A stretch of DNA of 59,611 bases, the filler included, from Sanchytrium tribonematis (Eukaryota), in NCBI GenBank assembly GCA_018985235.1. It is 8 parts of 8 records of this genome, joined end to end, with 100 filler letters (N's around TTAATTAATTAA, not from the genome) between each part and the next. Parts side by side here need not be neighbours in the genome. Positions count along the whole stretch, not along the records: positions 15,012 to 22,401 come from JADGIG010000438.1; 7 more parts are not named here. One strand, 5' to 3'. Both the position numbers and the translations under genes were made by a program. The notes beneath the pieces are model-generated. The model saw only the letters and a program-made list of their open reading frames with translations, had not been told where the DNA came from and did no database searches. Position 1 is the stretch's first letter; each line of letters opens with the position of its first letter. Shown here one piece after another: positions 7,413-38,856 of the stretch.

Positions 7413-7512
7413 NNNNNNNNNNNNNNNNNNNNNNNNNNNNNNNNNNNNNNNNNNNNTTAATTAATTAANNNNNNNNNNNNNNNNNNNNNNNNNNNNNNNN
7501 NNNNNNNNNNNN
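7413..7512. other. Artificial contig linker
   Basis: 44 N + TTAATTAATTAA (stops in all six frames) + 44 N. Confidence 0.98.
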
Positions 7513-8504
7513 CTTCGAGGGTGCTTTTTAAAAGGCTGTTTTCCTTTAAATGACTTTCCTTGATAATAAGGTTTTTGTTGAACGGAATCTTTGTTCTCGT
7601 AACTTTTGAATGCTTTCTTTTGAGGTTTAAAGAAGCTTTTGTCATTTGTAAACTTTCGCTTATTAGGAATGTTGGTCTTAAAAGAGTTTGTTGCTTCTGA
7701 CTCTAAGTTAATTGCCAACTCGTACGCATCGCGAAAGTTCTTGCATCGATCTTGTGAGTATTCGGCTTTTATCTGTCTCATAATTCTAGAGTCTTGTAGC
7801 GATGAACAAAACTTTCGAAAGAAAATTACACACTCATTTGGATCCTCTGTATCAAAATTGCATTTCTGGTGAAATTCTTTGAGCACTTTCACATACTGCT
7901 GAATTGATTGATTTTGTCTCTGAGACAAGCGAAAAAATTCATTGGTGAATTTTATATCATTGCTTGGCGGTTTCAATTCCAACAGTAAAGTGTCTTTCAA
8001 ACTTTTATAATTCTTTTCACAATTTTGAATTTGTTTGAACAGGGACGATGGCAGTCTTAATTTGACTTCTTTATATAGTCTGTCCTGATCCCATCCAAGT
8101 AGTTCCATATTGTCTTCCATTTTAGAAAGCCAATCTTCAATTTTATCTCTCTTTTCATCAAATCCGGGAATGTTGTATTTAAAGTCTTTAACAATATCGT
8201 TGACGCTGTTGGACTTTACCCAAGGAGGTGGTTGCATTTGACCAGGACTAGGATACTTAGTAATTTGTTCAATACTTTTCTTCATCTCTTTGAATTCTTT
8301 CATCATCGTTTCTAAATCTGTAGGATCTTCATCAATTGCCGTCACTGGTGTACTAGTGGGTTCATTGTCATTGGAAGTTTTTGGAATTCGAACTAAAGCT
8401 TCTCCATTTGAATTTGTTTCTAAATCTAATTGTTCTTCATAATTGTTAGTGGAAGTTCTTTGTTGTTCCTGTGGATCGGTTTCACGTAGATCACTCGCTG
8501 CCAT
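7513..8504 (-). mobile_element. LTR-retrotransposon Gag-like ORF (Ty3/Gypsy type), 3'-partial
   Basis: IPGFDEKRDKIEDWLSKME and RLSQRQNQSIQQYVKVLKEFHQKCNF resemble retrotransposon capsid motifs; a basic region follows. Confidence 0.7.
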
Positions 8505-9267
8505 GTAAAGGAGGAAAGGTATTTATTGGGGGGGAGATTACTTTATAACTGGAATGTAGAATGTTCTAGATGACATTCCTGTTACACACCACTTTCGTAT
8601 TCCACACTTTGGGCTGTTTCTTCAAACCATTTGGCCAATTTGATTGAAGGATCATTTTTGGCTTTCAAGCCTTTAAAGTATGGTAAAGCATTGAAAAATA
8701 ATTTAAATTTGGCTATTTTTTTTTAAAGTTGTTCAAAATTTATTAATAGAGTGGATTTCGCATCATCCATGAGAGAAAAATACCAAACGGTAATAAATCT
8801 CCGGGTTACGCCATTCAAGTACTGGTAAAAGCATTCCATATGGTTGCACACATTGGTTGAATTGAATAAATAAATTAATCACTTTCAGCAGGCCACCCTG
8901 CGTCATATTTTTCGGAATATAGGCTCCAAAAAAAGCGTCACCGCAGTTTATAGCTTCTGGGTTCTGATGCACAATTTGTTCCACTAAAAATGCTCTCAGT
9001 TATCGCATGGTAAAAGGGGAAAACAAATAAAAAAACCCTTTGCAATTTGTGAGTCGGCCGTTGATTCATCTTGACAAATAATACTTTAGTTGCTCTTTTT
9101 TAGGCAATTTGATTGATTTCTGTCTTTCTTTTCACTCTAGGAATCTTTTTTGCACTTTTGTCTTTGGTCATTGTTTGTCCGTTGCAAGGAGGGAAAACCG
9201 AATTCAAAATCAAAGACATTTAAGTCAGTATGACGAAATTTATTACTAATATGATGTCATTTTCGAA

Positions 9268-9567
9268 ATGTCCTGTCCAAATCAATCAGGTCCGGTAGAT
9301 CACAAAAGGTATTGCCGGTACTGGAATTGCATTATTGTATTGGTGCCATACGGACAACCTGAATTGTATAATCACTTCGATAGACATACATACAATATCT
9401 GGACTAGTAGGATAAGAATGGTTGCTGCAATTGACTTTGGCCTGCTCAAGCGCCGATTTAGGCCACTCTCTTTGCCTTTGATGATCAATTACCATTTGCA
9501 TGTTAAACTGTGCTATGATATTCGTAACATTTGTGTGGATGCTAGTATTTTTTCTAAATATAAATGA
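9268..9567 (+). pseudogene. PIF/Harbinger (HARBI1-like) transposase C-terminal remnant
   Basis: VPY..YNIWTSRIRMVAAIDFGLLKRRFRPL..CYDIRNICVD matches FNxxHSxxRxxVERxFGxLKxRFRxL..CxxLHN, with the catalytic E lost. Confidence 0.6.
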
Positions 9568-9994
9568 TACATTTGTTTTTGAAAATAATAACACATTTGG
9601 AACCAAATCCCAGAAGGGATAGAGATGCAATGAGTTCATTCATATTCGGTAAGTAGAACGCTGCTCAAGCTATTGTTTCTGAGATAAATTCAACCTATTT
9701 GCATGATTTAAAGTATCACGTACGGAGCTCCCCTATTGAGACTGCACATCCTCAATTCCTAAGTTAAAACCCGGATTGTATTTTGGGGAAAGCATGTTAA
9801 AAAGATTTAGGTGTTTACGATGAACATTGACAGCAATTTTCCAACTGATTTATTTCATTCAATCTTCTTTCCTAGTATCGTTGTGTTCTAGAACTGATCG
9901 GTCTGGTGTCGAATGAACCACAAAACTTATTGATAAATAAACACGCTTCGCTTTCTAAAAATAATTTTACACAAATTGCATTAGAAATATTACA

Positions 9995-10642
9995 TCAGAC
10001 AATCGTTTTTTGAACATTTACAATTTTAAGGTCACGTCTATAAAGCAATTGCAACGGAGAAAATCGCTTTGAGCTATGTTCAATATAACAATAATTTGCC
10101 ATAAGAACAAGACTGACTTTTAACCATTCAAGATTTTCACAAAGTCTAATAAATACCCTATCCCGTTGAAATGGCTCATTGTTCAAGAATGTGATTTGCC
10201 TTTGCCAAGTTCACCATATGAATCAAAGACAACAATATCCAAGAATTTGACTAAAGCATTGGTAAAATAGAAAACATTTAAAGATCAAAGTCATTTTGCG
10301 TAGCAGTCTGACCAATGATATTTGACTTGACATCATCACTAGCTTGATTTAAAGCTATAAGAACATCATCAGTGAGAAAGAGTTTAAGGTTTTGGACGCT
10401 TTCTTGTGGAGTCCAGGCATACGCGATGCTGATAGGGAAAAAAAACTGAGCCAACCCAAGAAACTTTGTTGCGGATGGCCATGAAACATGTTAAACTTGT
10501 GCTTATGGGTGTTTTCACTGTCTTCGGAGAGTTTGAGTTTGAGAGCGATTTGTTGTGGTGTGAACTTGCTGTTTGAAGTCAATTTTTGAAAGTATCTGTT
10601 TTCTGGGTCTTTATCTGACGCCAGGTATGGCATCCGAATCAT
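9995..10642 (-). pseudogene. Degenerate LTR-retrotransposon pol fragments (RT thumb and integrase)
   Basis: QSFLGWLSFF (cf. LQSFLGLxNYY) followed by HSSKRFSPLQLLYRR (cf. HSSTGFSPFxLLYGR); fragmented. Confidence 0.45.
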
Positions 10643-10820
10643 TGAGAAGAGCTATTTTAAGTGCGATTCTTGTACGATTAATTTCACCACAAACTGATTT
10701 CTTGTTCTGTATTTCTTGTAAAGTCTTAACGTATTAGAGTTTGAAATTAATTGTCTTAGACTCTCAGTACACCCTTAATGAATAAGGGTTTCGTATGAAA
10801 ACACTGTTGTTTAGTAAAAT

Positions 10821-12380
10821 TTATAAAGTCTTTACCAACTCCCTCCCCCACCATATTTTTAAAATGTCAAGAAAAATAAAACAATTACTTACTTCATGTA
10901 TTAATAAAGTTTCACCACTTAAATTAATAGTTACTTCTTGTGGAACATTTGCATCAAAAGTCACCTCATCTTCATTAAATAGTGCAATTCCGAACTCTTC
11001 TACGCCTTTTGCTCCCAAAGTAACACTCCAATTCCAAAATTTGTTGGATTTACAAGTAATAGAATAATGCACACATAATTGTAACCTTTTACTTTTCACT
11101 GGAACCAGTAATTGAAATTTGTCTTGCTCCAGTGGATTCTAATGTTTGTTTGGTTTCCATATTCATCCAAATTGTAGTTTCATCTGCAAATACATTGGAA
11201 TATAGTGACAATTTGCTTTTAACTTTTAAAATATGCTTTGCTGCTGATTCAATGAAATACTGACCATCATTTTAACTGATTGTGTCGCTGTTCTTGGTAT
11301 GAAATAATTTCTTTTTGATGTTTGATCATTAAATTCTTCAAAATTTTGTTTTTCAATCCATTTATTTAAACATTCTTTAGTAACAATTAATCGATTTGCA
11401 TAACATTAAATTATAATTAATGTGACTCAAATGTAGATGGATTCCGAGATGGTTTGAGATTCGGAATAAATGTGTAGAACTATATGGGCTGTAATAACTG
11501 AGTCTGATGGCTCATATAACTTATATTGGTTCATATTTGCAAAATATGAGTGTTCTTTGTTTATTGGTGACTCAACTCAAAGCTGCTTCGAGATATTCCA
11601 GATCGTTAGAAGTGGCACAATTGACTAACCGGCTTCAAAGTAATTCATTTCTTCTTAAATCTTTGATTATACTTAATGCAATGGCATTCGAGCAATAGTT
11701 GCAGCTTTGTCTGTGGCTTTATCGATTGCAATTTTTCTTAAATCTGATTCTATGTGGTTTTGTCCAAGATATATTTTGTAAATGTTTAAAAACTGGAAGT
11801 TTTACATCAAGTTTCTTGTGTTTACTAAACCTGAAAAATCACCAGACATAGAAACAACATTTGATTTTGAATTTAAAATCTCGCATTACAAAAGCTTAAC
11901 TGGGAAAATACAAAGGTGAGATATCTAAATGAGACACGTCATTCCATTTTGCCTTAAACAACATCCCAATTTGATCATGCTCAAAATCTGTGCTTCCTTT
12001 TTCACAATTTCAGCTTTTTCGGCCGCCACCCATCTTTTTTTACGAGTTCTAGGTAAATCAGAGTTTAAAAGCTAAATTTTTTCTTCATGCCATTCATATG
12101 CACTAGTTCATGAAAATGGGCAACAAATATTTAGGAAATGTTTCCAAGCGGTGTATGGCTTGACTTGATAATCACGAATAAAGATCAAAAAGTCCTGCAG
12201 AAGCCCAACAATATTTGCTTGACTATGAATAACCATATTTATTAACCTGAATTTCTCTTTTTTAGTAAATAGATTCATTTTTGATTGGCTGAAACACTTT
12301 TGTAGAATTGTTTTAGCCCATTGAGAATTTGCAAATTTGGTTTCAGTTCTAAATTTGGGTTCGTTTAGCGCAACTTGCAA
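10821..12380 (-). pseudogene. pogo/Tigger-like (Tc1-mariner superfamily) transposase remnant
   Basis: Manual translation near 11190-11060 gives FADETTIWMNMETKQTLESTGARQISITGSSEK*KVTIMCA (DDE_1-type motif); near 12100-12015 gives W..RTRKKDGGGRK. Stops and frameshifts are present. Confidence 0.6.
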
Positions 12381-12521
12381 TTTAAAATTCCAATTGAATT
12401 TGAGGGGCTGATAATCGAATGTTTGCTAACTCTTTCATCATTAAAAAGTCATTTGCATTACAGGCTCGGACTTTATTCAGTCCAACCTCAACGTATTTTA
12501 TGATAAATTGATTGAAACAAT

Positions 12522-14911: not shown

Positions 14912-15011
14912 NNNNNNNNNNNNNNNNNNNNNNNNNNNNNNNNNNNNNNNNNNNNTTAATTAATTAANNNNNNNNNNNNNNNNNNNNNNNNNNNNNNNNN
15001 NNNNNNNNNNN
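14912..15011. other. Artificial contig linker
   Basis: N44-TTAATTAATTAA-N44. Confidence 0.98.
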
Positions 15012-15013
15012 CA

Positions 15014-15442
15014 AATCATGCCAAAACCAGTGTCGAATTAACAGATGCCAAAGTCAAGACTGATGAAGCTTATGTTGCAAAGAATTGTGGATTTGAATTA
15101 CGATGTTCTGCAAATATTTCTAAATGTCCTGTGGGTGCAGATGGATGTGCTTATACGCCATTAATTGATCCAATATTGGGTATTTGCTATAAAGATTTAA
15201 CGAATTCATGCGAATATGCATTTGGTCATGGATGTTATATTCAAAAATTAAAATCACAAGATTCTGATGCGTGTGTTAAATTTCATGATACTGAATTGGT
15301 TCCATCTACAAAAGCACGACATCATGCAAAAAAGATTAAAAGTGATGCGCAATGGGCTATGGCAGGATTAGGACTGGCAGCTATTGCAGAAGGGATTGCC
15401 GCATATGGTATTTTGATTTATTTGAAAGGGATGAAGCAATAA
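15014..15442 (+). CDS. Cys-rich array member 1 (5'-partial), close paralogue of 17256..18158
   Basis: CGFELRC..GIC..C..GCYIQKLKSQDSDAC aligns with CAFEFRC..GIC..C..GCYIQPLKSKDSDAC; C-terminal hydrophobic helix. Confidence 0.75.
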   Translation, partial: NHAKTSVELTDAKVKTDEAYVAKNCGFELRCSANISKCPVGADGCAYTPLIDPILGICYKDLTNSCEYAFGHGCYIQKLKSQDSDACVKFHDTELVPSTKARHHAKKIKSDAQWAMAGLGLAAIAEGIAAYGILIYLKGMKQ

Positions 15443-15485
15443 ATACATGATTTGACAGTGTTTTGCACTAATAGGAGGTTAAACA

Positions 15486-15530
15486 ATCACGCCATGATAT
15501 CGTCATAATGGCGTGATAGTCACTATAAAT
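15486..15530 (+). promoter_or_regulatory. Putative promoter: 10-bp inverted repeat plus TATA-like element
   Basis: ATCACGCCAT (15486-95) and ATGGCGTGAT (15508-17), then TATAAAT (15524-30), 24 nt before the ATG. Confidence 0.4.
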
Positions 15531-15554
15531 AGAATCTCGTGTTGATGGCGCATC

Positions 15555-16337
15555 ATGTTGTTTATCAATGCGATATTTGCCAGAATTCATTTGCCACAAA
15601 TAGTGATTTCAACAAGCAATGATTTGTTAAATGCTGCTAGTCAATATGAATTAGAAGCACTAGAATGCTTTAAACAACTATTTAACAATGCACCATGTCA
15701 TGTACCCACTGAAATTCGTAGTGAAATGACTATGAAATGGAATGCATGGATTGATGCCATTCGAATGAATCCAGGATCAAAAAAAGTGATTTTTGAGTTA
15801 TTATTTGGTGTGAAGCAGTATCATGAGCCACAACTGTTGAAAAGGAACATTAAGAAATATGAGAATGCTTTGACGAGGATTTTATTGCCTCATTCATCTA
15901 AAATACACAAAAATGTGATGATGAAATTATTATATGCTGTAATTTTGGATTCGGGATTATTGGGGAATTCTGGGTACTTTTGCTTTCTTTGGAATAGAAG
16001 AGTACGGGATGAAAAGTTTATTATTCATGCAGATCAAGCTATTCAACAACTGATTCAAGATAATTGCTATTTTGCATTTCAATCAAATGATGGAGCATTG
16101 TGTTTTGATGACACGCAAGATATTTGTCAATCTGCACCACTGGGTGATTTAAAATTAAATCAATGTATAAATTATTATACAAATGAATACAGGAAAGCCA
16201 AAAAAGCGTATCAAGAGATAATTCATATTGAAGCATCATTGGTTCATCTTTCCATGATGGGATTTATACAAGTAATTGCATTTGTATTTGCATTAAGTGC
16301 ATTAAGAAATGCATTGGTGAATAATAAAGGACAATAA
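15555..16337 (+). CDS. Array member 2: signal peptide, LLKR site, hydrophobic helix, Cys loop, hydrophobic helix
   Basis: MLFINAIFA, LLKR, CYFAF..C..C..C and a C-terminal hydrophobic stretch. Confidence 0.7.
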   Translation: MLFINAIFARIHLPQIVISTSNDLLNAASQYELEALECFKQLFNNAPCHVPTEIRSEMTMKWNAWIDAIRMNPGSKKVIFELLFGVKQYHEPQLLKRNIKKYENALTRILLPHSSKIHKNVMMKLLYAVILDSGLLGNSGYFCFLWNRRVRDEKFIIHADQAIQQLIQDNCYFAFQSNDGALCFDDTQDICQSAPLGDLKLNQCINYYTNEYRKAKKAYQEIIHIEASLVHLSMMGFIQVIAFVFALSALRNALVNNKGQ

Positions 16338-16437
16338 ATCTATTTTTACAAAATTTTGCACTGCAAAATGAGGGGGATACATAATGATGTCATTTATGAT
16401 GTCATTTTAACTTCATTATGATGACATTTAAAACAAC

Positions 16438-17139
16438 ATGTTGATTTCTATTGCAATTGTATTTGCCAGACCTGTATTGCTATTACAGCCAGTACAAACA
16501 AATCCATTTGCACAATTATTCTTTAAATCCATGGGATTGTCAGATCATGTAGTGCAATCTGGTATTCAATTCTTGAAATTTGCAATGATTTGTGAACCAA
16601 TCTTTTTAAAATGTGATAATTTGAAAGATTGTTCATTACATGCAACAGATATGGAATATGGCACTAATTTGTGGAATCAATTGATTGATACAATGGATGA
16701 TGAGTCATTTAAACTCATGAGAGATCATTTGATAGCAAATTTAAAGTGGGGAACCCATGTAAAATTACGAAAAAGAACATTACAAGAAAATGATATTGAA
16801 AGTAATTTACCAGGAAATCGCAGAGTACCAACTGTTTCTAATTATCGAGCTATTCCAATTTCAATCTATTTGTTAAATTTGATGATTGTCACAATGATAT
16901 TTTTATTAATCAAAAATCATTCATTTTATTCAACAATCCATGCCACAACACCAATTTGTGATGTAAAAGCATCCAATTACAATGAGTGTCATAAATTAAT
17001 TGAAAATGTTGATCATCAGCCAATTGAAACATATATGCAAGATACGCCTGCAAATATTATCTGGAATCCATCAAATGAGGATGTTTTAGGATCATTTTTG
17101 TTACTTGTCAAACAACAAATGGATTTTTTTAATCAATAA
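16438..17139 (+). CDS. Array member 3
   Basis: MLISIAIVFAR, LFFKSMGL (shared with member 5), LRKR, a TM helix and CDVKASNYNEC; the second hydrophobic helix is weak. Confidence 0.7.
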   Translation: MLISIAIVFARPVLLLQPVQTNPFAQLFFKSMGLSDHVVQSGIQFLKFAMICEPIFLKCDNLKDCSLHATDMEYGTNLWNQLIDTMDDESFKLMRDHLIANLKWGTHVKLRKRTLQENDIESNLPGNRRVPTVSNYRAIPISIYLLNLMIVTMIFLLIKNHSFYSTIHATTPICDVKASNYNECHKLIENVDHQPIETYMQDTPANIIWNPSNEDVLGSFLLLVKQQMDFFNQ

Positions 17140-17255
17140 ATGGTATTGCACAACAAGGAGATGAATGACTGCCACATGATATTTTATTTCATCATTTATG
17201 GCATCATCATGGCATCATATTTATAATAAAAGTCATTTCATGTCTTTGATGCATC

Positions 17256-18158
17256 ATGTTGTTTATATTGTTGCTATTTGCCACCCAATTGCTTGAATTA
17301 TCACCAGCCACTCAAACATTTATTCAATTTGCCATTCAAATTGAAGCACAAGGAATAAACATACTTGAATGCTTAAAACAAGCATCAAATCCAAATGAAT
17401 GTGATGTAGATTCAGTATTAATCCAACAAGCATTTGATGAATCAAAACAATTTGCAAATTCATTAAATTTAGAGGCATTGGAACAAATCAGTCAATTTTT
17501 ACAAGGTCATGGTCCATCTCATTTGATTGTACTACCACAAACACGATTTAAAAGAGCATTGACTGAATTACCAATAACGCATCCCATTAATAATCGAATG
17601 ATTAAAATCACTTTTAAACGTGCCATTAAATTAATTGGAATTGTATTGGGTTTGGCGGCATTAAATGCAGCTTGGTATCCAATTGTACATACGTTGATTA
17701 AAAATCATCATAAAATACACCCATTAAACCACATTATCAATATTCAAACTGATCAAATTAACAAATTAGAAAATCAATTTAATTCTGATTGTGCATTTGA
17801 ATTTAGATGTAAAGGCCCTGATCCATCACAAGTAGATTGTCTTGTAGGAGATGATAAATGTGAAATACAGCCAATGATTGATACAAAATATGGTATTTGT
17901 TTACAAGAAGTGAAAGTTATTTGTGAAAATGCATTGAAACACGGATGTTATATTCAACCATTAAAATCAAAAGATTCAGATGCATGTATTGCGTATGATG
18001 TTACTAAAATCGAACCAATTAAAAGTGAAAGACACATTCAAAAAACAAGGAGATTTAATATTAGAGGAACATTGGTAGGATATTATTTTTTGGGAGCTTT
18101 GGATGCCATTGTGATTGCCTATTTACTACATAGTTTAAAAATTGAGTTTAAAAATTAA
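17256..18158 (+). CDS. Array member 4
   Basis: MLFILLLFA, RFKR, TM1, an 8-Cys loop and TM2. Confidence 0.72.
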   Translation: MLFILLLFATQLLELSPATQTFIQFAIQIEAQGINILECLKQASNPNECDVDSVLIQQAFDESKQFANSLNLEALEQISQFLQGHGPSHLIVLPQTRFKRALTELPITHPINNRMIKITFKRAIKLIGIVLGLAALNAAWYPIVHTLIKNHHKIHPLNHIINIQTDQINKLENQFNSDCAFEFRCKGPDPSQVDCLVGDDKCEIQPMIDTKYGICLQEVKVICENALKHGCYIQPLKSKDSDACIAYDVTKIEPIKSERHIQKTRRFNIRGTLVGYYFLGALDAIVIAYLLHSLKIEFKN

Positions 18159-18253
18159 ATTCAATAAATCACGGGTTTGACAATGTTTTGTATTTGGGGT
18201 AATTTCTGCCAATGATAGCAGAGTACAACGTCACCCGCTCATGAAAAAGAATC

Positions 18254-18991
18254 ATGTTATTGTCCATTTTCATTTCATTTGCAAGAGTATCCCATACAAC
18301 ATCAGAAACAGTCAGAATTGCAAATAATCCATTAAATAAACAGTCTGATGGAATGAATATGCAATTATTATTTGAATCCATGGGTCTACATCCTAATATA
18401 ATACAATCTGGTGCTCAATTCATGTCATTTGTCATATTACATAAAGCAGAATTAATGAAATGTGTTAGGCAATCAAATTGTCTATTAAAGAACACAAAGC
18501 AACATGGACGATTATTATGGATCCAATTTATGAATACAATGACTAATGAGTCATATCAAAAGATTAAAGACTATTTAATGAAATTGATTAAAGTGAAAAT
18601 GAATTCAAATCATCTTGTTGAAAGATCACCAGAGAAGACTGATGATGACGCAGATGTAATTGATTTGAATCAAGAAAATACATCCAAAATAGTAGCACTA
18701 TTCAAATTGATGGCTCTTTTAGTGCTATCTCTTGGATTGGGATATATTGGAATTTTATTACATAAATATGGAGATACTACTAAATTAATGGATGAAGTAT
18801 GCGGCATAGAATTAAGAGTAGCCAATTATAGAGAATGTCGCTATGATGTCCATATGGTCGGTGGAGACATTGAAAATCAAATTAATTCTGCTGAATTTTA
18901 TCAAATTGTGACACGCCTCATTTTTACGACGGATATTGTTTTTATTCCTATTTTATTGACTTTGATGTATGATGTTCATTTTAATCAGTAA
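18254..18991 (+). CDS. Array member 5
   Basis: MLLSIFISFAR, LLFESMGL, LVER, TM1, CGIELRVANYREC and TM2. Confidence 0.7.
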   Translation: MLLSIFISFARVSHTTSETVRIANNPLNKQSDGMNMQLLFESMGLHPNIIQSGAQFMSFVILHKAELMKCVRQSNCLLKNTKQHGRLLWIQFMNTMTNESYQKIKDYLMKLIKVKMNSNHLVERSPEKTDDDADVIDLNQENTSKIVALFKLMALLVLSLGLGYIGILLHKYGDTTKLMDEVCGIELRVANYRECRYDVHMVGGDIENQINSAEFYQIVTRLIFTTDIVFIPILLTLMYDVHFNQ

Positions 18992-19080
18992 ATGATGCAA
19001 ATATGATGCAATTTTGGAGTTAATCTGACAAATGACAGCACGGTATGGCGTCATTTGCAATTTAAAAATAGTCACCCATC

Positions 19081-20077
19081 ATGATGTGGTCCATTGTCTT
19101 CTTATTCCTATAAATTTAATGGCCATGTATGATGCTATTTGCCAATGAATTACGATTCTAAAATGTTTGGTATCCAGCCCCCTTGTGACAATGTTGCTTC
19201 CTGCTATGACAGTTCCACGATTGAATGGATTCAGTGGAGATACTGTTGTGGCAGCAAATCAGTTATCCCATTAAGTAATGAAGTATCGGGTAGCTGCAGA
19301 ATATTGCGTGCAACATGTCTGGAAGAAATGCAACGTACCATATCGAGTAAAACAGGGTGCTTTGCGTACATGGTATGCATTTACAGATACTGTTGATCGT
19401 AAACAATTTCCATTAATTGCTAAATATCTAGCAGGTGGTCAATGGAACAAGGTAAAGGAGCATTTAAATGTCATTTTGGCACGTGGCTCTCTTTATAAAA
19501 GAGTATTACGAAATGAGGTAATGGAAGCACAAACCGGTGAGCAAATAGGGAATTCTAATGAGAACAAAGCTAAAAAGAGACGAAATCGTATTTATAATCG
19601 ATTTTAGCTATTTTAGCACTAAGTGGCTTATTGTATGCTGCTGTATGGGGTTATATTCAAAATGAGCATGGTTTAGAACATATGAGTGAAATAAGCAACT
19701 TGGCAAATAAGGGTGAAGAAGACATTTTACAAAAAATTATAAACAATTGTGAGTTCAAAAACGTTGGACCAGGCTGTGATGTTCTAGATATTAATCCGTA
19801 TTATTGGACATGTTTGCCAGCCAAAATGGAAGCGTGTCAAACATCCATTAAAGATGGAACATGCCATGTGGAACAAAAAGGAGAATTTGATCAAGAAAAA
19901 TGCAACAAGTTGAGCAATAATTTATCAACAGCATTAGACGATGTGGACGATGCAAAAACACGAGTGAATGAATTGAGTCAAAGAAAAGTTTGGATTCTTA
20001 TAGCTACTTGTACTGATACAGCAGCGTTGCTTGCTGCGGTATATTCACTTTACAAGGCTGTCTTTAAGATCAAATAA
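19081..20077 (+). pseudogene. Array member 6, disrupted; paralogue of 20097..21050
   Basis: MMWSIVFLFL* signal fragment, several in-frame stops and a frameshift near 19605. VAAEYC..RVKQGALRTWYAFTDT is nearly identical to member 7; LYKR site. Confidence 0.65.
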
Positions 20078-20096
20078 ATCTAAAATTACAATTATC

Positions 20097-21050
20097 ATGC
20101 TGTTTAGCAAGGAAAAGTGCAATTTTAACCCCTTTCTGACAATGTTGCTTCCTTCTATGACATATTTTCTACGATGGAATGGAATCAGTACAAATACTAT
20201 AAAAGCAGCAAATCGATTATCCAAATATGTAATGGAGCATCAGGTAGCTGCAGAATACTGCTTTCATCAACTACCAAAGAGATGCATTGTGCCAAATCGA
20301 GTAAAAAAGGGTGCTTTGCGTACATGGTATACATTTACAGATACCATTCATGAACGAGAATATAATGTCATTGCCAAGCTTCTAGCAGGCCAACAATGGG
20401 ATCAAATCCCAAAAGATTTGAGATATTTAAATGAGCATTCTCTTTTAAAAAGAGGTTTAACCACTGATGGAACTCATGAATTTGCTAGTGGAGATGTAGA
20501 ATTAGCCATTCAACTCCCACAACAGTCTGCTGATACCAATGACAAGAAATCCATTGATGAATTTCGAAAATCTATTTTTCTAAAATTAGTTACAATTTTA
20601 TTACTTGCAGGTTCAATGTTTGCAACTGGTTGGGGTATGAAGTCTTATTATCACAAAACTGGGTTGGGTGAAGCTAGAATTACATTTGCAGATGAGACAT
20701 TAGCAACCGTGTCTAATACAATCAGAAATCATTGCGGATTTAAATTTGTAGAACCAAAATGCGACTATTTGATCAGTGATTATGGTGATTGTGTGATAGA
20801 TGATGGATGTCAAAGTGCAATTAACAATGGAGTGTGTCATGTGGTGCCTACAAAAGATTATAATTATACGGATTGCCAGAACTTGATCCCTCAACTGCAA
20901 GCAGCCACAAGAGACCTTGAAGATGCTAATTCAGAATGTTCGCTGTTATATTTTACAGATGCTTTAATCGTTGTAGCGGGATTATTTCAAATTTGTTGGT
21001 TTGTTTGGGTACTTTCAGAATTGCGCAGCGAGGTGCGAAAACATAAATAA
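20097..21050 (+). CDS. Array member 7 (signal peptide apparently missing)
   Basis: LLKR, TM1, CGFKF..C..C..C..C..C and TM2; starts 19 nt after the member 6 stop. Confidence 0.65.
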   Translation: MLFSKEKCNFNPFLTMLLPSMTYFLRWNGISTNTIKAANRLSKYVMEHQVAAEYCFHQLPKRCIVPNRVKKGALRTWYTFTDTIHEREYNVIAKLLAGQQWDQIPKDLRYLNEHSLLKRGLTTDGTHEFASGDVELAIQLPQQSADTNDKKSIDEFRKSIFLKLVTILLLAGSMFATGWGMKSYYHKTGLGEARITFADETLATVSNTIRNHCGFKFVEPKCDYLISDYGDCVIDDGCQSAINNGVCHVVPTKDYNYTDCQNLIPQLQAATRDLEDANSECSLLYFTDALIVVAGLFQICWFVWVLSELRSEVRKHK

Positions 21051-21095
21051 ATTGGAATAACATTACTAAATAAATCATTTGCACAATCCAATTTA

Positions 21096-21434
21096 TTATA
21101 ATTTAGCACCTTGTTGTAATGTCTTTAACGCGGAATCCAATTTTAAAGCAGTCATCATATTTCCCTTGATTTTCAATTTACCCTTCATAAATGCATTTTG
21201 GGATGTCAATTTACCTTGTACGATATCCATTAAATCTTTTTCTTTTAATAATATAGTCACATCTCCACTTTCTGATGCATGCTTCTTAATATTCCCACTT
21301 TTGAAATCTAAGACGTATTTCGTGCCATCAATCTCGATAATGAAGATGGAATTGATTTTACTCAACATTTCTTTGCGTTTGGATTCGGATAATGATTGAA
21401 ATGATGCTGATAATGTGTCAATGACTTGGGACAT
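21096..21434 (-). CDS. SCP2 sterol-carrier domain protein with PTS1
   Basis: GKLTSQNAFMKGKLKIKGNMMTALKL; C-terminal AKL peroxisomal signal. Confidence 0.9.
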   Translation of the reverse strand: MSQVIDTLSASFQSLSESKRKEMLSKINSIFIIEIDGTKYVLDFKSGNIKKHASESGDVTILLKEKDLMDIVQGKLTSQNAFMKGKLKIKGNMMTALKLDSALKTLQQGAKL

Positions 21435-21467
21435 GTTTAAAGGGGATTGTCACAAAAATCATTAAAA

Positions 21468-21540
21468 TGGAGAATCAGGGCTTCGATCCCTGTACCTTTC
21501 GCATGCAAAGCGAACGCTCTACCAATTGAGCTAATTCCCC
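21468..21540 (-). tRNA. tRNA-Ala(TGC)
   Basis: 73-nt cloverleaf GGGGAATTAGCTCAATTGGTAGAGCG..TTTGCAT..GGGATCGAAGCCC..TTCTCCA with a G3:U70 pair, followed by TTTT. Confidence 0.95.
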
Positions 21541-21574
21541 AATGTTTTCTCCTATGAAATAGACACTATATTTA

Positions 21575-22401
21575 TTAATACAATAAGTAGGATAATACAA
21601 TAAATGACCAGGATAATGAATTAGCGGGAGATACTTCAAATCCATCTGAATATTCAGCATAAGAATTCTTTGCATATTTTATAGTTGATTTTAAACCGGG
21701 GTGATTTGTGAAATAATGGGCATTTGGATCTGCTGAAGGAACCTTGTCATGTAGATATGCAACAACTTTTTGACAATATTGTGGGATATCTTGTGCGACA
21801 TCTTGGATTTCTTTAGGGAGTAAATTGAGGGCATATTGAGGGATTTTAAGATTTTGAAATGAAATGAGGACATCGGGAAGGGATTCTTGTTGCAAATTAG
21901 GGTTGGAAGAGTCCGTTGGAGTAGCTATAGGACTAGATGAACCAGTTGGGGATGCTGGTGGGGATGGAATGGCTGGAGATGATACATTTTTATGTGCAGA
22001 TGCCAGACTTGCTGGTGATGACGGAATAGCTGGTGGAGGGGTGACTGGAGTTGGACCAGAACTTGCTGGTGATTTTGGGGAAGATTGAGTGGGTTGTGGA
22101 ATCGGGATGGAGATTTTTGGCAAATTTGGAATTGAAGCAACAGAGGATTTTGTTGGCGTGACGACTGCTGGTGTAGCTGGTGCTGCCGATTTGGGTGCTT
22201 GTGGGGCACCAGGAATTGGCGCATCAATATCAATAGGCTTATAATCACTAGTAGGATGTGAAAAGGTTTGAGTCCAATATATTTTACCATCACTCCCTGT
22301 AGATTCAAAATAGCCGAATCTGTCATAATTGGGATTTAAAAGATTCTCTCTGTGTCCTGCTGAGTTCATCCACGCAGTCATGACTTCTTCAACAGATTTT
22401 T
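21575..22401 (-). CDS. CAP/SCP-domain protein with Pro/Ser/Thr-rich stalk and likely GPI signal (5'-partial)
   Basis: VMTAWMNSAGHRENLLNP..YWTQTF, a PST-rich linker and a hydrophobic C-terminus. Confidence 0.82.
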
Positions 22402-22501
22402 NNNNNNNNNNNNNNNNNNNNNNNNNNNNNNNNNNNNNNNNNNNNTTAATTAATTAANNNNNNNNNNNNNNNNNNNNNNNNNNNNNNNNNNNNNNNNNNN
22501 N
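22402..22501. other. Artificial contig linker
   Basis: N44-TTAATTAATTAA-N44. Confidence 0.98.
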
Positions 22502-22545: not shown

Positions 22546-25500
22546 TTGGAGTTCCTCGTAAAATCTTCTTTGAGGAATAAGATTCCGAAGTCAGAGTGGT
22601 TAAACGTTATGATTAACTTGTTGCCAGAGAGGGTAGCTTGTCTTTTTAACGTCGACGACTACCCTACATATGAAAGGTTTTTGCGAGGACTTATTACGAA
22701 GTTCCGAGCAAAAAGTAAGCTGGCTAAATTGGTGAACGAGATGACCTCGACCATGCAGAAGCCAGGAACGAATGTCTCAGATTACTGCGAGGAAATGAGA
22801 ATGAATGTGGACAAATTAAAGTTCGTACTTAGGAAGCCACTAAGTAGCGATACAGAGATGATGCGTGAGCAAGCAAGAAGATTAGTTACGGATGAGTACG
22901 TTATCTTTAGACTACTACATTTCTGCAGCCCGACCATGAAAGCTAGTGTGCGACATAGCCTGACGGTCAGAGAAGTAACTACAATCTCAGGAGCAGAGCA
23001 CATGCTGGAAACGATCGAACGAGAAGTCAAATTCTTGATCGGATCAAAGTATTACGAATATAGGGACCCTTTTGATGAGGATGTTGCGGGAGGTACCGTA
23101 AAGAAGAACCAAGGAGGTAAGCCTAAGACGGAGGCTAATCCGGAAGGAAAATTTAAGAATTTGATGAAGACGACCATTCGTCGGTTGTCTCCCGAAGACA
23201 GGCAAATGTGTCTCGATGAAGGGCTATGTTTTTTGTGTAAAGACCCGGAAAATAAGCACCGGGCTAGGGATTGCCCCACGATAAGGTCAAAGCACCATAG
23301 AACTCGCCCTAAGGAGGACGAAGCTGGAGGATCGGTCAGGGAGCGTTTTTCTAAGGTACATAAGGTGAAGGCCCGAAGAGTAACCCAAGATTCGACAATT
23401 CCTTGCATCGAGGCAGAGGGTACTGTCGAAGGCGTTTCCAGTAAGCTGCTAGTCGATACGGGCAGTGAAGTGAATCTGGTAACAGTTAAATGGTTGTTAG
23501 ACCATGCGGAAGGACTTCAGGTTAAGAGGTCACCTTACGACCTACTGGAGACATTTAATGAAAAGACGGCAGAGAAGGTACTGGGTAGAGTGGATCTACG
23601 ATGTACTTTAGCTTTTGGGAGCGATGCAATCCTGCCGTTTGAAATAGTAAAGAATAGCGGGTGTCATATTTTGTTGGGCATCGGCAGCATTCAACCATTA
23701 AATATAATTATAAATGGTAAAAGAGGCATCATCGAAATGGGGAACAAAGTAGTTGATTTCAAAACCATGAAGGAAGTGGTTCCCAACTTCTCAGAATCTT
23801 CAAGAGCTTCCGCGGACTCCGAGAGGACTCCGGCCCAAGTAAAGAAGGTCAAAAACTCAGCAAAGGTGTACTACGTGACCAACAAAATGGGCCGCAAGTT
23901 TGAAGACCCAGAAGTGGTAATGGAAGAGCCACCTGAGTTTAACGGTAAAGACCTAACTACTAGAATATCGGTAGAATACCGGGAGCTCCACGATGTAATT
24001 CGTCCCGATTTCCATTCTGGTTTTACCAAAAACGAACCGGAACAGTTGTCGAAACTTTGCATGGAGCTCATTCAAGATGAGGCGGATCCGCCTACTGATA
24101 TGGAGATTGTTAGTGAAGAATTTCCAAGAATGCCAGAGGAAGACTACCCCGGGAATGAGGACATCGTGCACTTTGATGAAATTCCCATTTTAGTGGATGA
24201 TGGTAAACGGCAAGTAGACGCCATTATTAGTGAAATCCGATTTGGGACAACACTTACTCAATCCCAAAAACAGAAAGTGGAGCAGTTAGTAAGGAAACAT
24301 TTGAGTGTGTTTACCGGGAAATTGGGCGCCAAGGTGCCGGCCGCGAAGATCGAGCTAAGAGATATCACACCTTATAAGGAGAAGAGACGACATCGAGATG
24401 CGACCCAGGAGGCGGTGATAGCCGAAAACATTGAAGAGATGCTCGCTCTAGGGTATATAACGGAATGCCCAACGTCAGAATATACACACGAGACAGTTCT
24501 GATTAAGAAGAAAGGCACCAGTAAGTGGCGTTTCTGCATCGATTTTCGTCCTTTGAACGGGAAGTTAGTTTATTGCCACTACCCCCAAGCAGATATTGAA
24601 GACAATATACTACGTTTTGCGGGTAAAAGGTATTTTTGCAAATTTGATATGACTAGTGGGTTCTGGCAGATCAAACTAGATCCAGAATCACAACCATACA
24701 CCGCATTCTACGCTAATGGAAAGCTATACATGTTCTGTGTGCTACCCTTCGGGATTGCTAATGCACCAGCATGGTTTCAACAAATATTAGATAGAGTACT
24801 GGAAGGTTTAGATTTTGCTAAAGCCTTCCTTGACGACATCTCTATGGGTCACGAGACCTTCGAAGGGATGATGGAAGACCTTGAGCGTCTTTTAATTAGA
24901 TTAGACCAATACAACATCAAGTTGAGCGCAAAGAAATGTTATATTGGATTTAAACAAATGGCCTTGTTAGGACATGTCATCGACGATAGTGGGATACGCC
25001 CTGACGATGAGAAGGTCGCGGCATTGTTAAAGGCCAATGTTCCGACCAATAAGAAAGAGTTGGCCTCCTTTCATGGGGCCATGCAGTGGCATCAGCGCTA
25101 CATTCCCGATTACTCGATAATCGCGAAATGTCTTTTAGATCTACTGGCGAAAAAATCGCCGTGGATTTGGGATGAAGAACATCAGGAGGCCTATGATAAG
25201 GTTTTGAACATCTTGGCCAAAAAGGTGGTATTGCATTACCCAGACCCTCGGAAGCCATATCAGATCCGCACGGATGCGTCTAGCAAAAAGGGTCTTGGTG
25301 CGGTCCTCCTACAAGAAGGATTGCCTATCTTTTTCTGGAGTAGGAAATTGTCGGAACGCGAGCTGAAGTGGCACATTACTGAACTAGAGTGTCTCGCCAT
25401 AGTAGAAAGCCTCAAACGATTTGAGAGATATGTCTCGGGCCAGAGTATCACTGTTTTCACTGACCATGGAGCCCTGAGTTGGCTACTTACGGGTCGACCG

Positions 25501-27099
25501 GCGTTAAAAGGAAAACTTTATAGATGGAGTATTTACTTGAGTCAGTTTCAGTTGAAAATTGTTTACATCAAAGGTCATCGTAATCTAGATGCGGACTTTT
25601 TAAGTCGACACCCTTGCGCAGCCGACGCCGAGCAACTTGCTTTCTCGTCAAAGGAGGAGAGAGACTGCAAGAAGGGCGTGGTTGACGAGAATGTGGTTGA
25701 CGAGAGTAAGAAGGGCGTGGTTGACGAGAATGTGGGCGACGAGACGGTTAATTTTTTAAACGCCAAAGTGGGAGAGGTCTCCGCGAAACGAATGTCAGAG
25801 AACAACGTACTTTTGGATCAACAAACAACAGATGAAGAAGTTAGAATGAGATACGATGTCATTCGTACCCGAATGAAGAAAGGTGAAGAAGACGTCATAA
25901 CGGCGAATAATGCCTTGTCTTCCGGGTTCATCCCGAAGTTTGAACCGGTAACTGAGAACTCGTCAAACTTGATGAATGCGATGGTTAAAGATTGGGCGCG
26001 CTACCCCTACCGAGTCTGTCCTGCTAATGAAGTCATTCTGGACATCACAGAATTAGAAAGCGAGATCAATGAGAACCCCTTGAAAAGGTTTTTCCCAGTA
26101 AGGGATCACACTACTAACCCTGGTGACCCAGTCAGGTTCAAAGAGGTTTTGGCCAAAGTGGTGGGACCGGGAACTGAGTATGTGGTAATCGTCACGGCGA
26201 TTGGAGATATGGCGGGAGATCCAGTTCTACCTTCCCGCTACACCTGCACTATTGGGATGGAAGGGCAGACAGATTTGCAAACTAGGTTCGCGCTTCTTGT
26301 ATTAGAATGGGTCATTCCAATTGGGTTGGAAACTATTGGAAGGTTGAACAAGCTATACGCGCTAACCGGTAGAAAAGAAAATCGTTCTAAAGGAGAGCGT
26401 CGACAAACCAGAGAATCGACCGATGTAGAGCATTTTAAGCTATCGGACGATATCAGCAATCGACAGAAGGAGATCGACGAGCTTGTTAAATTGGTTGGTG
26501 GCTCCATTCGAGTGGCTGTTCGTTTTATTGAAAGGGACCGCTTTGAACCGAGACTGCCGGATCATTTTAACATCCTCTTGGGAGAACGATCGGGTTATGG
26601 GGACGTCGTTGCAAAAGATTTAGTATGGGAGGTTCTACCCGTGCCAGTGGGAGACCTAAAAAATAAGTACGCGGAGGCTGAGTCCAAGCTTACCCACGAC
26701 TTGGGTGGCCAGCTGTCGAAGCTGTACCTAGAGTTGGTGTCTTTTAGGGAGCCAGCAGCCCGACTAATCGCTGGTAGCATTCGGCTTCCTGCCACTAGTT
26801 TTTCCCAAATGAGACTTGAAGTAGGGAATCGGGTGTCCTGGATCTTACCCATCAAGGACAGCTCGAAGTACAATAAGGCCCCACTCCAAGGGAAAGACGT
26901 AGTTCTTTTACCCGATGAGCAGCCATGGACGGACCACTTACTGGTGAAAAAAGAGGCCCTAGCCAAACAATATTGTAGTGCGTGGGGATTATTCCTTAGG
27001 AATGCCATGGAGAGATATGGCTTATTCGTTCAAGGGTTCGATCCCACAAGATGGAGGGAGCACCCTTTTGCTTCAAACCAAACCGGAAGCATGGGTTAA
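22546..27099 (+). CDS. Gag-Pol polyprotein: zinc knuckle, protease, RT, RNase H and an unknown extension
   Basis: CFLCKDPENKHRARDC, LVDTGS, WRFCIDFRPLN, LPFGIANAP, FLDD, TDASS..ELECLAIV..TDH..NLDADFLSR. Confidence 0.92.
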   Translation: MEFLVKSSLRNKIPKSEWLNVMINLLPERVACLFNVDDYPTYERFLRGLITKFRAKSKLAKLVNEMTSTMQKPGTNVSDYCEEMRMNVDKLKFVLRKPLSSDTEMMREQARRLVTDEYVIFRLLHFCSPTMKASVRHSLTVREVTTISGAEHMLETIEREVKFLIGSKYYEYRDPFDEDVAGGTVKKNQGGKPKTEANPEGKFKNLMKTTIRRLSPEDRQMCLDEGLCFLCKDPENKHRARDCPTIRSKHHRTRPKEDEAGGSVRERFSKVHKVKARRVTQDSTIPCIEAEGTVEGVSSKLLVDTGSEVNLVTVKWLLDHAEGLQVKRSPYDLLETFNEKTAEKVLGRVDLRCTLAFGSDAILPFEIVKNSGCHILLGIGSIQPLNIIINGKRGIIEMGNKVVDFKTMKEVVPNFSESSRASADSERTPAQVKKVKNSAKVYYVTNKMGRKFEDPEVVMEEPPEFNGKDLTTRISVEYRELHDVIRPDFHSGFTKNEPEQLSKLCMELIQDEADPPTDMEIVSEEFPRMPEEDYPGNEDIVHFDEIPILVDDGKRQVDAIISEIRFGTTLTQSQKQKVEQLVRKHLSVFTGKLGAKVPAAKIELRDITPYKEKRRHRDATQEAVIAENIEEMLALGYITECPTSEYTHETVLIKKKGTSKWRFCIDFRPLNGKLVYCHYPQADIEDNILRFAGKRYFCKFDMTSGFWQIKLDPESQPYTAFYANGKLYMFCVLPFGIANAPAWFQQILDRVLEGLDFAKAFLDDISMGHETFEGMMEDLERLLIRLDQYNIKLSAKKCYIGFKQMALLGHVIDDSGIRPDDEKVAALLKANVPTNKKELASFHGAMQWHQRYIPDYSIIAKCLLDLLAKKSPWIWDEEHQEAYDKVLNILAKKVVLHYPDPRKPYQIRTDASSKKGLGAVLLQEGLPIFFWSRKLSERELKWHITELECLAIVESLKRFERYVSGQSITVFTDHGALSWLLTGRPALKGKLYRWSIYLSQFQLKIVYIKGHRNLDADFLSRHPCAADAEQLAFSSKEERDCKKGVVDENVVDESKKGVVDENVGDETVNFLNAKVGEVSAKRMSENNVLLDQQTTDEEVRMRYDVIRTRMKKGEEDVITANNALSSGFIPKFEPVTENSSNLMNAMVKDWARYPYRVCPANEVILDITELESEINENPLKRFFPVRDHTTNPGDPVRFKEVLAKVVGPGTEYVVIVTAIGDMAGDPVLPSRYTCTIGMEGQTDLQTRFALLVLEWVIPIGLETIGRLNKLYALTGRKENRSKGERRQTRESTDVEHFKLSDDISNRQKEIDELVKLVGGSIRVAVRFIERDRFEPRLPDHFNILLGERSGYGDVVAKDLVWEVLPVPVGDLKNKYAEAESKLTHDLGGQLSKLYLELVSFREPAARLIAGSIRLPATSFSQMRLEVGNRVSWILPIKDSSKYNKAPLQGKDVVLLPDEQPWTDHLLVKKEALAKQYCSAWGLFLRNAMERYGLFVQGFDPTRWREHPFASNQTGSMG
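25669..25746 (+). repeat. In-frame 39-bp tandem duplication (KKGVVDENVV/GDE)
   Basis: AAGAAGGGCGTGGTTGACGAGAATGTGG starts at both 25669 and 25708. Confidence 0.9.
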
Positions 27100-27376
27100 C
27101 CCAGAGGACATCTATTATGAACATGAAGAGTTACAAAAGAATCGCAAGGCCGTGGTCGAAATTCCTAAGAGGGAAAGGGTGATCAAAACATCTTCTTCCC
27201 CACCGCGTAGTCCTTTGTTGGACTTTGAGGAGAATTTAGTCTTTAGGAAGCAGACAAAGAGACCGAAGGTCGACTCTAGAGGAATGGTGAGTTATGCTGA
27301 TCTGAACACGACTAGTGAGGCGATGGTAGCCGCCGTGACCACCTGACGACAAGAGAAGGAAGCGAGAGACGTAGTC

Positions 27377-29869: not shown

Positions 29870-29969
29870 NNNNNNNNNNNNNNNNNNNNNNNNNNNNNNN
29901 NNNNNNNNNNNNNTTAATTAATTAANNNNNNNNNNNNNNNNNNNNNNNNNNNNNNNNNNNNNNNNNNNN
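29870..29969. other. Artificial contig linker
   Basis: N44-TTAATTAATTAA-N44. Confidence 0.98.
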
Positions 29970-37319: not shown

Positions 37320-37419
37320 NNNNNNNNNNNNNNNNNNNNNNNNNNNNNNNNNNNNNNNNNNNNTTAATTAATTAANNNNNNNNNNNNNNNNNNNNNNNNN
37401 NNNNNNNNNNNNNNNNNNN
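37320..37419. other. Artificial contig linker
   Basis: N44-TTAATTAATTAA-N44. Confidence 0.98.
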
Positions 37420-37907: not shown

Positions 37908-38071
37908 TTACCAATCGGCAAACTGGGTAATAGGGGTGTATCAGTTGGTACTGATAAACTATTTTAAAATTTATACCCTTTAACCATTATTACACATGGA
38001 TAAGACACAATGATTACTGGTTTATTGCTCTAATGGCATATTGAGAAGAAAATTATCATTGCAAATGCGAT

Positions 38072-38767: not shown

Positions 38768-38856
38768 CTTTCTCCGGTTGTTTCTTCTGAGAATGAAATC
38801 AATTGTCATGCTTCTACACGTGTATATTCGTCAATATGAGAATGAATATCAAGTAT

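Follow-up and report, generated by a model that had tools for sequence, protein, structure and literature searches.

In the excerpts of the literature cited here and below, the K1 killer toxin carries hydrophobic regions through the secretory pathway (PMC7021474), a convertase primes class I fusion proteins, which possess two hydrophobic tethers (PMC10866366), and RIFIN and STEVOR offer a precedent of membrane spanning by just one of two hydrophobic regions (PMC4502930). Some Plasmodium proteins with transmembrane-like segments are described as forming intermediates within the endoplasmic reticulum (ER) lumen (PMC10096305). Kex2 is described as preferring L-x-K-R, with Glu among the tolerated P2 residues (PMC8528282). 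Sanchytrids parasitise freshwater algae, on whose wall they form cysts before entering by a short rhizoid, and the excerpted account of their genomes names only wall-degrading enzymes (PMC8371127). Very little is known of how zoosporic fungi that live on algae as parasites get through host membranes and exploit them. In this study, we analyzed a tandem array of seven paralogous genes (g1 to g7) at positions 15014-21050 of a 59,611-nucleotide stretch of DNA from Sanchytrium tribonematis (NCBI GenBank assembly GCA_018985235.1), referred to as the window. As judged from sequence, the array represents a real, undescribed protein family, and its members are concrete candidates for such a role, with a conserved putative activation site.

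An initial annotation had described seven same-strand genes with a common layout (short signal peptide, pro-region with a Cys pair, basic site, hydrophobic helix 1, Cys-containing loop, and usually hydrophobic helix 2) and had proposed released, pore-forming toxins or effectors whose pro-domain shields a membrane-inserting hairpin. Seven paralogous coding units were indeed found head to tail on the same (+) strand (Table 1), whereas the full layout was visible in only six, because gene 1 is cut by a linker; it begins at the edge of its assembly piece (15012), and its signal peptide, N-terminal domain (N-domain), site, and helix 1 lie outside the visible part. The paralogues were about 20% identical on average. 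When Smith-Waterman scores of 28 pairwise comparisons were tested against 200 shuffles, the three annotated close pairs were recovered with z-scores of 33 (g1/g4), 27 (g3/g5), and 47 and 23 (g6/g7). Cross-links between the pairs (g2/g7, z 17; g4/g6, z 11; g5/g7, z 7; g2/g4, z 6.5) joined all units into one connected family. The observed score was reached by none or one of the shuffles in 12 of the 28 pairs, and the remaining 16 were weak. DNA repeats agreed with the three close pairs, with 233 nt at 75% identity between genes 6 and 7; in the protein alignment of genes 1 and 4, 49 of 138 positions were identical. In a tree of the eight full-length members, g3+g5 was the only grouping resolved. 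The ratio of nonsynonymous to synonymous substitution (Nei-Gojobori) was approximately 0.5-0.8 in three pairs, values that are near saturation and hence uninformative; a fourth comparison was dropped, as only 9 codons aligned.

Gene 6 is broken into three reading-frame pieces; the initial annotation had counted one pseudogene in the array. Two frame breaks were found, but no in-frame stop was present inside the pieces, and the breaks are compatible with either recent decay or an assembly error. An intron was ruled out since the pieces match gene 7 across the breaks. The start of gene 7 was placed at the ATG matching the gene 6 start; an in-frame ATG upstream, at 20097, would give 317 aa.

Subsequently, relatives were sought with a profile of eight window pieces in 1.84 billion representative proteins (E up to 0.001). 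Nine matches were obtained, namely six window proteins and three outside proteins, P0020 (E 2.6e-18), P0021 (E 2e-5), and P0022 (E 7e-5). These three are named EukProt proteins of S. tribonematis and are encoded on three different contigs; the family is thus multigene, highly divergent, and spread over at least four contigs. P0020 was 27% identical to gene 2 over the full length (E 4e-29). Within the window, a profile scan revealed no further member outside the array. Gene 4 itself was absent from the profile matches, and therefore the searched library is incomplete. The 90% cluster of gene 4 (P0009) had an unrelated 55-aa peptide as its representative, an artefact of clustering that may account for the absence of gene 4 from the searches; the cluster mates of gene 4, P0010 and P0011, were likewise unrelated short peptides and were dropped as relatives. 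Because only window and S. tribonematis proteins were matched, the family is likely one of the algal-parasitic sanchytrids. Among named proteins, the best relative of a housekeeping gene in the window, encoding a replication factor C subunit, came from Amoeboradix gromovi (65%), again in line with a sanchytrid origin.

None of 11 proteins or pieces (eight window pieces and three outside proteins) reached the gathering score of any Pfam family, those of known integral-membrane proteins included, and nothing significant for the family was found in PHROGs or among PDB sequences, in agreement with the suggestion of a new family. The ESM Atlas gave no usable match for g7 or for residues 100-297 of P0020. 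In locus scans, no relative of g4 or of the neighbouring SCP2 gene was found in metagenome contigs, nor one of g7 in viral contigs. Word-seeded homologue searches recovered only two and one of the window's own proteins and are too insensitive to speak on absence. In the literature on sanchytrids and chytrid algal parasites, no published description of the family was found; the supplementary tables of unannotated sanchytrid-specific proteins in the genome account may list it as an unnamed group (PMC8371127).

The basic site was conserved. All six sites quoted in the initial annotation (LLKR, LRKR, RFKR, LVER, LYKR, and LLKR) were present and fell in one alignment column, and the only three invariant columns among the six window members with an N-domain were two Cys and the P1 Arg. 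With the outside proteins included, nine members possess an N-domain; Arg was kept in 9/9, Lys-Arg in 8/9 (3/3 outside members among them), and an aliphatic P4 residue in 8/9. The P1 residue was located at residues 96-124, and a KR, RR, or LxxR motif was present in the first half of the chain in all nine, the g5 site (residue 124 of 245) being at the midpoint. In 29 other open reading frames (ORFs) of the window, the KR background was 0.0032 per residue, or 0.034 per 11-residue window; as far as these sequences tell, conservation of the site is far beyond chance. When the site was masked, similarity to the outside members was still significant (z 5-39; 0/300 shuffles in 7/7 pairs), and therefore these members form a fair hold-out for site conservation. 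The distance from the second N-domain Cys to the site was 48-57 residues, while that from the site to helix 1 varied from 6 to 41 residues (the g6 value as computed was one short). The fixed spacing on one side and the variable spacing on the other suggest that the site marks the end of the N-domain and is not a mere basic flank of helix 1. Other dibasic pairs were scattered and did not align across members, leaving one conserved site only. Cleavage at this site is likely.

The N-terminus of the chains is an uncharged hydrophobic stretch of 8-10 residues, which ends in Ala in six members. It was strong in six of nine members (mean Kyte-Doolittle (KD) hydropathy, 2.3-3.4). For the annotated short signal peptides, this held in g2-g5 (2.3-3.4 over residues 2-9) but not in g6 and g7, where the values were only 1.45 and 0.99. 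Such a very short hydrophobic start at the first Met was seen in only 3 of 32 other window ORFs. A heme-thiolate peroxidase encoded in the window begins alike when read from its second Met, which makes it likely that such short signals are real here.

The Cys pair, helix 1, the loop of 2-8 Cys beginning with CxF/I/V, and helix 2 were observed as annotated, apart from g3, which does not have helix 2. The loop, hereafter the knot, contains 8, 4, 2, 8, 2, 6, and 6 Cys in g1 to g7 and 8, 8, and 4 in the outside members. The number was even in 10/10 members, Cys were lost two at a time, and no CxxC was present. The even counts and pairwise loss suggest that the loop Cys behave as disulfides, and they are likely disulfide-bonded. 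A metal finger was ruled out on the grounds of the missing CxxC and the pairwise loss. In g2, g6, g7, and P0021, a lone extra Cys was observed inside a hydrophobic helix or close to one. The predicted disulfide pairing depended on the alignment. In g4 numbers, alignment A1 gave 179-215/185-231/195-202/223-244, while A2 and the knot-focused A3 gave 179-244/215-231/202-223/185-195. The latter alignment-based pairing was preferred because it staples the two helix ends.

The structure of gene 4 was predicted as an AlphaFold2 monomer from an 8-row alignment. The model consists of a three-helix N-domain (helices 17-41, 53-69, and 72-83) with the conserved Cys pair and Trp, followed by two long stalk helices that contain hydrophobic helices 1 and 2, respectively, and are connected by a small beta/helix knot (boundaries in Table 1). 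The predicted local distance difference test score (pLDDT) was mostly 70-90 in the hairpin, 50-62 in the N-domain, and below 50 around the site, and the predicted template modelling score (pTM) was 0.43. The VIA structural matches were generic coiled-coil hairpins, namely IpaB 74-242 (Z 11.7, root-mean-square deviation (rmsd) 2.8, 122 aligned) and EmrA (Z 11.3, rmsd 2.6, 127 aligned), and many unrelated chains lay within 1-2 Z units of the top match. Since the best matches are antiparallel hairpins, the chain is predicted to fold into a long hairpin of helices, in which the knot sits opposite the end that holds the two hydrophobic helices. The annotated notion that the hydrophobic helices are brought together as a hairpin was thus supported by the model. 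They are, however, the two ends of a 150-residue hairpin and not an adjacent colicin-type hairpin. Pore formation received no support. With Foldseek at E up to 0.001, neither the g4 model (against PDB and viral models) nor the knot alone (against PDB) found a match, which is no proof that the folds differ. With the knot alone (model pLDDT 70.7), VIA matched 2 of 48,161 chains, both ferredoxins (Z 2.1-2.2, rmsd 3.4-3.5, 50 aligned), which does not show the knot to be new.

With a mean KD of 1.2-2.1, helix 1 has the full character of a transmembrane helix, and a transmembrane-like helix 2 with a tail of 5-10 residues forms the C-terminal end in 8 of 10 members. At least two K/R preceded helix 1 in 7/8 members, and none preceded helix 2 in 5/6. 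This charge pattern leans towards N-in, loop-out, C-in for the final state, with g4 and the basic residues after helix 1 as exceptions. The putative signal, Cys pair, and kexin site place the N-domain in the lumen, and the paired Cys place the knot there as well. A strongly hydrophobic helix thus lies between two parts that are both placed in the lumen. This topology conflict, pointed out in the initial annotation, is real, given that the loop Cys behave as disulfides and helix 1 is strongly hydrophobic.

We tentatively favour a kexin-primed protein that is anchored by helix 2 and whose helix 1 inserts only after cleavage, although we hold this reading to be somewhat short of probable. It was preferred because a type I precursor satisfies most of the constraints, even though it needs a non-standard translocation step. 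The hydrophobic N-terminus would be a cleaved signal peptide, and the N-domain, site, helix 1, and knot would all enter the ER lumen, where disulfides form. Helix 2 alone would be integrated, giving a type I protein with a short cytosolic tail. A kexin-type protease would then cut after L-x-K-R in the late Golgi and remove the helical N-domain of approximately 90 residues. The cut would expose a basic leader and helix 1, which would insert beside helix 2 with its basic flank in the cytosol. The end state would be a protein with two membrane helices (N-in, loop-out, C-in), located in the membrane of the parasite itself or in an adjoining host membrane, with a likely disulfide-knotted head on a helical stalk left outside the cell. 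With the cut site ahead of the predicted hairpin, the proteins are likely inactive precursors that are switched on by cutting at the cell surface. A protein with a strong transmembrane-like helix between two disulfide-bonded domains would depend on an unusual way through the ER, for which exported proteins of Plasmodium are the documented precedent in the excerpt considered (PMC10096305).

Several observations weigh against this reading. The putative signal peptide is weak in g6, g7, and P0022, and the g5 site (LVER) does not have the Lys. Helix 1 is as hydrophobic as helix 2 (LIVFM 0.55 vs 0.53; G+A 0.18 vs 0.20). A standard translocon would be expected to integrate so hydrophobic a helix, and while the helix is still in the channel, a pro-domain in the lumen cannot cover it. 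Nor did the model bear out shielding of the hairpin as annotated, since the low-confidence N-domain was not confidently packed on it in a monomer of low pTM. Because g3 and P0022 do not have helix 2, the anchor step cannot apply to these two. The flank after helix 1 is also basic in 7/8 members, g4 carries 4 K/R on the loop side of helix 2, and amphipathicity of the stalk exceeded that of shuffles (p<0.05) in only 4/14 segments.

Ordinary membrane proteins are a rather unlikely but serious alternative. Either a weak signal would be bypassed and helix 1 would act as a signal anchor, giving a two-pass receptor with a cytosolic N-domain and the knot outside, or the signal would be cleaved, helix 1 would stop transfer, the loop would be cytosolic, and kexin would shed the N-domain as the active secreted part. 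The transmembrane character of helix 1 agrees with this, as do charges that fit N-in, loop-out, C-in in g6, g7, P0020, and P0021 (helix 1 being basic on both flanks) and g3, which reads as a simple single-pass protein. The mean identity of the N-domain (0.22, the same as that of helix 1 and close to the 0.26 of the knot) also suits a functional domain. However, a signal anchor offers no explanation for the conserved hydrophobic start, the Cys pair, or the L-x-K-R site, and stop-transfer would put one to four pairwise-lost Cys pairs without CxxC in the cytosol. If an ordinary topology were true, the array would be one more lineage-specific surface family. Distinctly unlikely, in our estimate, is a soluble pre-pro pore-forming toxin, in which the chain would be secreted, the pro-domain removed, and both helices would enter the algal membrane, perhaps as hetero-oligomers of neighbouring paralogues. 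Multi-component pores of the ClyA family are built from tandem divergent paralogues, and here two members (g3 and P0022) have no helix 2, and the predicted hairpin brings the hydrophobic helices together at one end. The pre-pro layout with a Kex2 site is also that of K1 killer toxin as excerpted (PMC7021474). Yet 8/10 members terminate in a strong hydrophobic helix whose short tail is mostly basic, as is usual for an anchor, against release as initially annotated; most members have no second site between helix 1 and the knot for an alpha/gamma/beta layout, and no toxin family was matched in Pfam or PDB sequences.

A RIFIN/STEVOR-like variant surface protein would be type I through helix 2, with helix 1 as a permanently buried core or oligomerisation helix; cleavage would mature the ectodomain, and the knot would serve adhesion or host recognition. 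We regard this as still less likely. A highly divergent multigene family on at least four contigs would fit, and the order of parts is that of RIFIN/STEVOR, in which one of two hydrophobic regions spans the membrane according to the excerpt (PMC4502930), whereas the modelled helix 1 is continuous with the stalk and lies beside helix 2, where the membrane would be, the basic N-flank of helix 1 resembles a membrane-orientation signal, and Pfam revealed no sequence similarity to the RIFIN/STEVOR families. Highly improbable, finally, is a cellular analogue of a class I viral fusion protein, in which kexin priming would free helix 1 for an opposing membrane and folding of the stalk hairpin would pull the membranes together in host entry or cell fusion. 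To our knowledge, ten or more divergent copies would be unusual for a fusogen. Helix 1 shows no Gly/Ala enrichment over helix 2 and is separated from the site by 6-41 residues rather than placed at the new N-terminus, and two members do not have the anchor. The order of parts nevertheless matches class I as excerpted (signal, N-subunit, convertase site, hydrophobic segment, helix, disulfide loop, helix, anchor, and short tail; PMC10866366), and the model resembles a post-fusion hairpin, although sanchytrids feed via a rhizoid and are not described, in the excerpted account, as fusing with the host (PMC8371127).

Returning to the kexin-primed protein anchored by helix 2, the tandem divergent paralogues, variable heads, broken and truncated copies, and likely parasitic origin form a pattern that points to the host interface. 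There, the divergent paralogues might act in membrane permeabilisation or host-surface binding, and the variable knot might set specificity, which is a guess. In its most far-reaching form, the array would encode a protease-primed, membrane-anchored fungal family that drives a latent transmembrane helix into the membrane of the host alga, along the lines of a class I viral fusion protein or a tethered pore-former, yet independent in origin and equipped with a disulfide knot of its own, and would be the first candidate host-attack machinery of sanchytrids. We consider this form unlikely, though worth stating.

Table 1 Features of the array and its surroundings in the window. Positions count along the whole window; P1, residue before the putative cut.
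Feature	Position	Strand	Remarks
Gene 1, 3' part only, 142 aa	15014..15442	+	End of stalk helix 1, 8-Cys knot, stalk helix 2, hydrophobic helix 2, short basic tail
Gene 2, 260 aa	15555..16337	+	Short hydrophobic N-terminus, N-domain C38/C48, LLKR, helix 1 ~121-146, 4-Cys knot, helix 2 232-250
Kex2-type site LLKR, gene 2	15834..15845	+	P1 = R97
Gene 3, 233 aa	16438..17139	+	N-terminus, N-domain, LRKR, strong helix 1 139-157, 2 Cys, no helix 2; pairs with gene 5
Kex2-type site LRKR, gene 3	16765..16776	+	P1 = R113
Gene 4, 300 aa	17256..18158	+	Complete 8-Cys member; modelled three-helix N-domain, helix 113-178, knot 179-244, helix 241-299
Kex2-type site RFKR, gene 4	17544..17555	+	P1 = R100; in low-confidence, probably flexible model stretch 81-112
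Hydrophobic helix 1, gene 4 (aa 126-144)	17631..17687	+	Basic stretch before it
Cysteine knot, gene 4 (aa 179-244)	17790..17987	+	8 Cys
Hydrophobic helix 2, gene 4 (aa 273-291)	18072..18128	+	Followed by short tail
Gene 5, 245 aa	18254..18991	+	LVER (LxxR, no Lys), strong helix 1 147-165, 2 Cys, helix 2 218-236 without basic tail
Non-canonical LxxR site LVER, gene 5	18614..18625	+	P1 = R124
Gene 6, three reading-frame pieces	19191..20077	+	Breaks near 19270 and near 19605; LYKR at 19491-19502; 6-Cys knot; pairs with gene 7
Gene 7, 302 aa	20142..21050	+	LLKR at 20442-20453, helix 1 145-163, 6-Cys knot, helix 2 274-292, basic tail
SCP2 sterol-transfer family protein	21096..21434	-	Convergent neighbour outside the family; Pfam PF02036, E 4e-20
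tRNA-Ala(TGC)	21467..21541	-	Beside the array
Artificial linker	14912..15011		Cuts gene 1; ABC-transporter and Piwi genes upstream are non-neighbours of the array
Seven identical artificial linkers	7413-7512, 14912-15011, 22402-22501, 29870-29969, 37320-37419, 44766-44865, 52206-52305

The window consists of eight assembly pieces, each about 7.3-7.5 kb, which are joined by fixed 100-base linkers (44 N + 12 nt + 44 N). The pieces are unrelated, and therefore gene neighbourhood across any linker carries no meaning. A link of the array to the upstream Piwi and ABC genes was ruled out accordingly, as they lie on a different piece. On its own piece (15012-22401), the array is followed by the SCP2 gene, the tRNA-Ala gene, and a partial CAP gene. 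The genome sample is compact and AT-rich (30-36% GC apart from a retroelement) and uses the standard genetic code, with a TAA or TGA stop in 22/22 sampled ORFs.

Other pieces contained features of separate interest. In the piece 37420-44765, five ORFs showed a hydrophobic start of 8-10 residues (37907-, 38809- from Met 15, 39768- from Met 20, 40097+, and 44470-), of which three had no Pfam match and one encodes a heme-thiolate peroxidase; they form a second cluster of likely secreted genes. At 37421-37907 (-), a very short hydrophobic start led straight into a RING-like Cys/His motif (zf-RING_16 at E 0.001, under the curated cut-off), a candidate secreted mimic of a RING ubiquitin ligase that would need to act in the host cytosol. 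A retroelement-like region at 22609-29711 (+), of 42-49% GC compared with about 34% elsewhere, contained by eye a 1496-aa ORF resembling gag, protease, reverse transcriptase, and RNase H, a 596-aa integrase-like ORF, and a 173-aa ORF. The interval 8505-12500, beside a retrotransposon gag-like ORF (7513-8504), comprised about 4 kb without an ORF longer than 120 aa, which is unusual for a gene-dense genome. The gene at 44974-46479 (+) encodes a membrane protein of the Acyltransferase 3 family (PF01757, E 1e-18). This family is common in bacteria, and the gene is a possible horizontal acquisition. A divergent myosin head at 50238-52205 (+), cut by a linker, may be the motor domain of a fungal myosin-chitin synthase.

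The family was then compared with known systems. The antiparallel stalk most closely matched generic two-helix hairpins (IpaB 74-242, EmrA, an SMC coiled coil, LegC3, and PspA/ESCRT-III) at 5-10% identity, all below the Z of about 13 asked for helical matches, which indicates a common shape and not kinship or function. RIFIN, STEVOR, and PfMC-2TM undergo PEXEL/plasmepsin V export, where the present family has a kexin site. They belong to an unrelated lineage, and none of these Pfam families was found at E up to 1 with the eight window pieces and three outside proteins. According to the excerpted account, these Plasmodium proteins have in common with the array a parasite multigene family, a signal (putative in the array), a processing motif, a hydrophobic region, a variable Cys region, a transmembrane helix with a short tail, and the question of one pass or two (PMC4502930). 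With class I viral fusion proteins, as excerpted, the family has in common a type I layout, convertase priming, hydrophobic tethers at both ends of a helix-disulfide loop-helix hairpin, and a short tail (PMC10866366). The convertase site before a hydrophobic segment, the helix-loop-helix hairpin, and the C-terminal anchor (anchor-like in 8/10) were all found, whereas there was neither a moderately hydrophobic fusion peptide, rich in Gly/Ala and placed at the new N-terminus, nor a fusion loop closed by a disulfide, no Cys pair flanking helix 1. Unlike class I proteins, the family has a transmembrane-like helix 1 and no CX6CC, is a cellular multigene family, and consists of much smaller proteins.

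With K1, as described in the excerpt, the family would have in common a precursor of the pre-pro type cut by Kex2 and hydrophobic helices carried through the secretory pathway; the K1 pro-region is proposed to keep the membrane-active part inactive (PMC7021474). K1 is virus-encoded and, after loss of gamma, a soluble, disulfide-linked alpha/beta heterodimer (PMC7021474), in contrast to the family, which would have one mature chain and usually a C-terminal anchor-like helix. The delta-alpha-gamma-beta layout with several Kex2 sites was not found, only one site being conserved. K2PP effectors (SnTox3, ToxA, and SIX1/4/6) have a signal peptide, of which the short hydrophobic start is the putative counterpart in the family, and, like the family, a pro-region, KR or LxxR in the first half, a mature part that is (in the family likely) disulfide-rich, and a parasite of photosynthetic hosts as their source, as far as the excerpt goes (PMC8528282). 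K2PP pro-domains are described there as often unstructured (PMC8528282), whereas the family is predicted to have a three-helix domain with a conserved Cys pair, and only its site region looks disordered. The named K2PP effectors are soluble, whereas the family has one or two transmembrane-like helices, and no sequence similarity between them was found. Taken together, these comparisons suggest that the family likely resembles a kexin-primed pro-protein and differs from K2PP effectors by its predicted folded pro-domain and its transmembrane-like helices.

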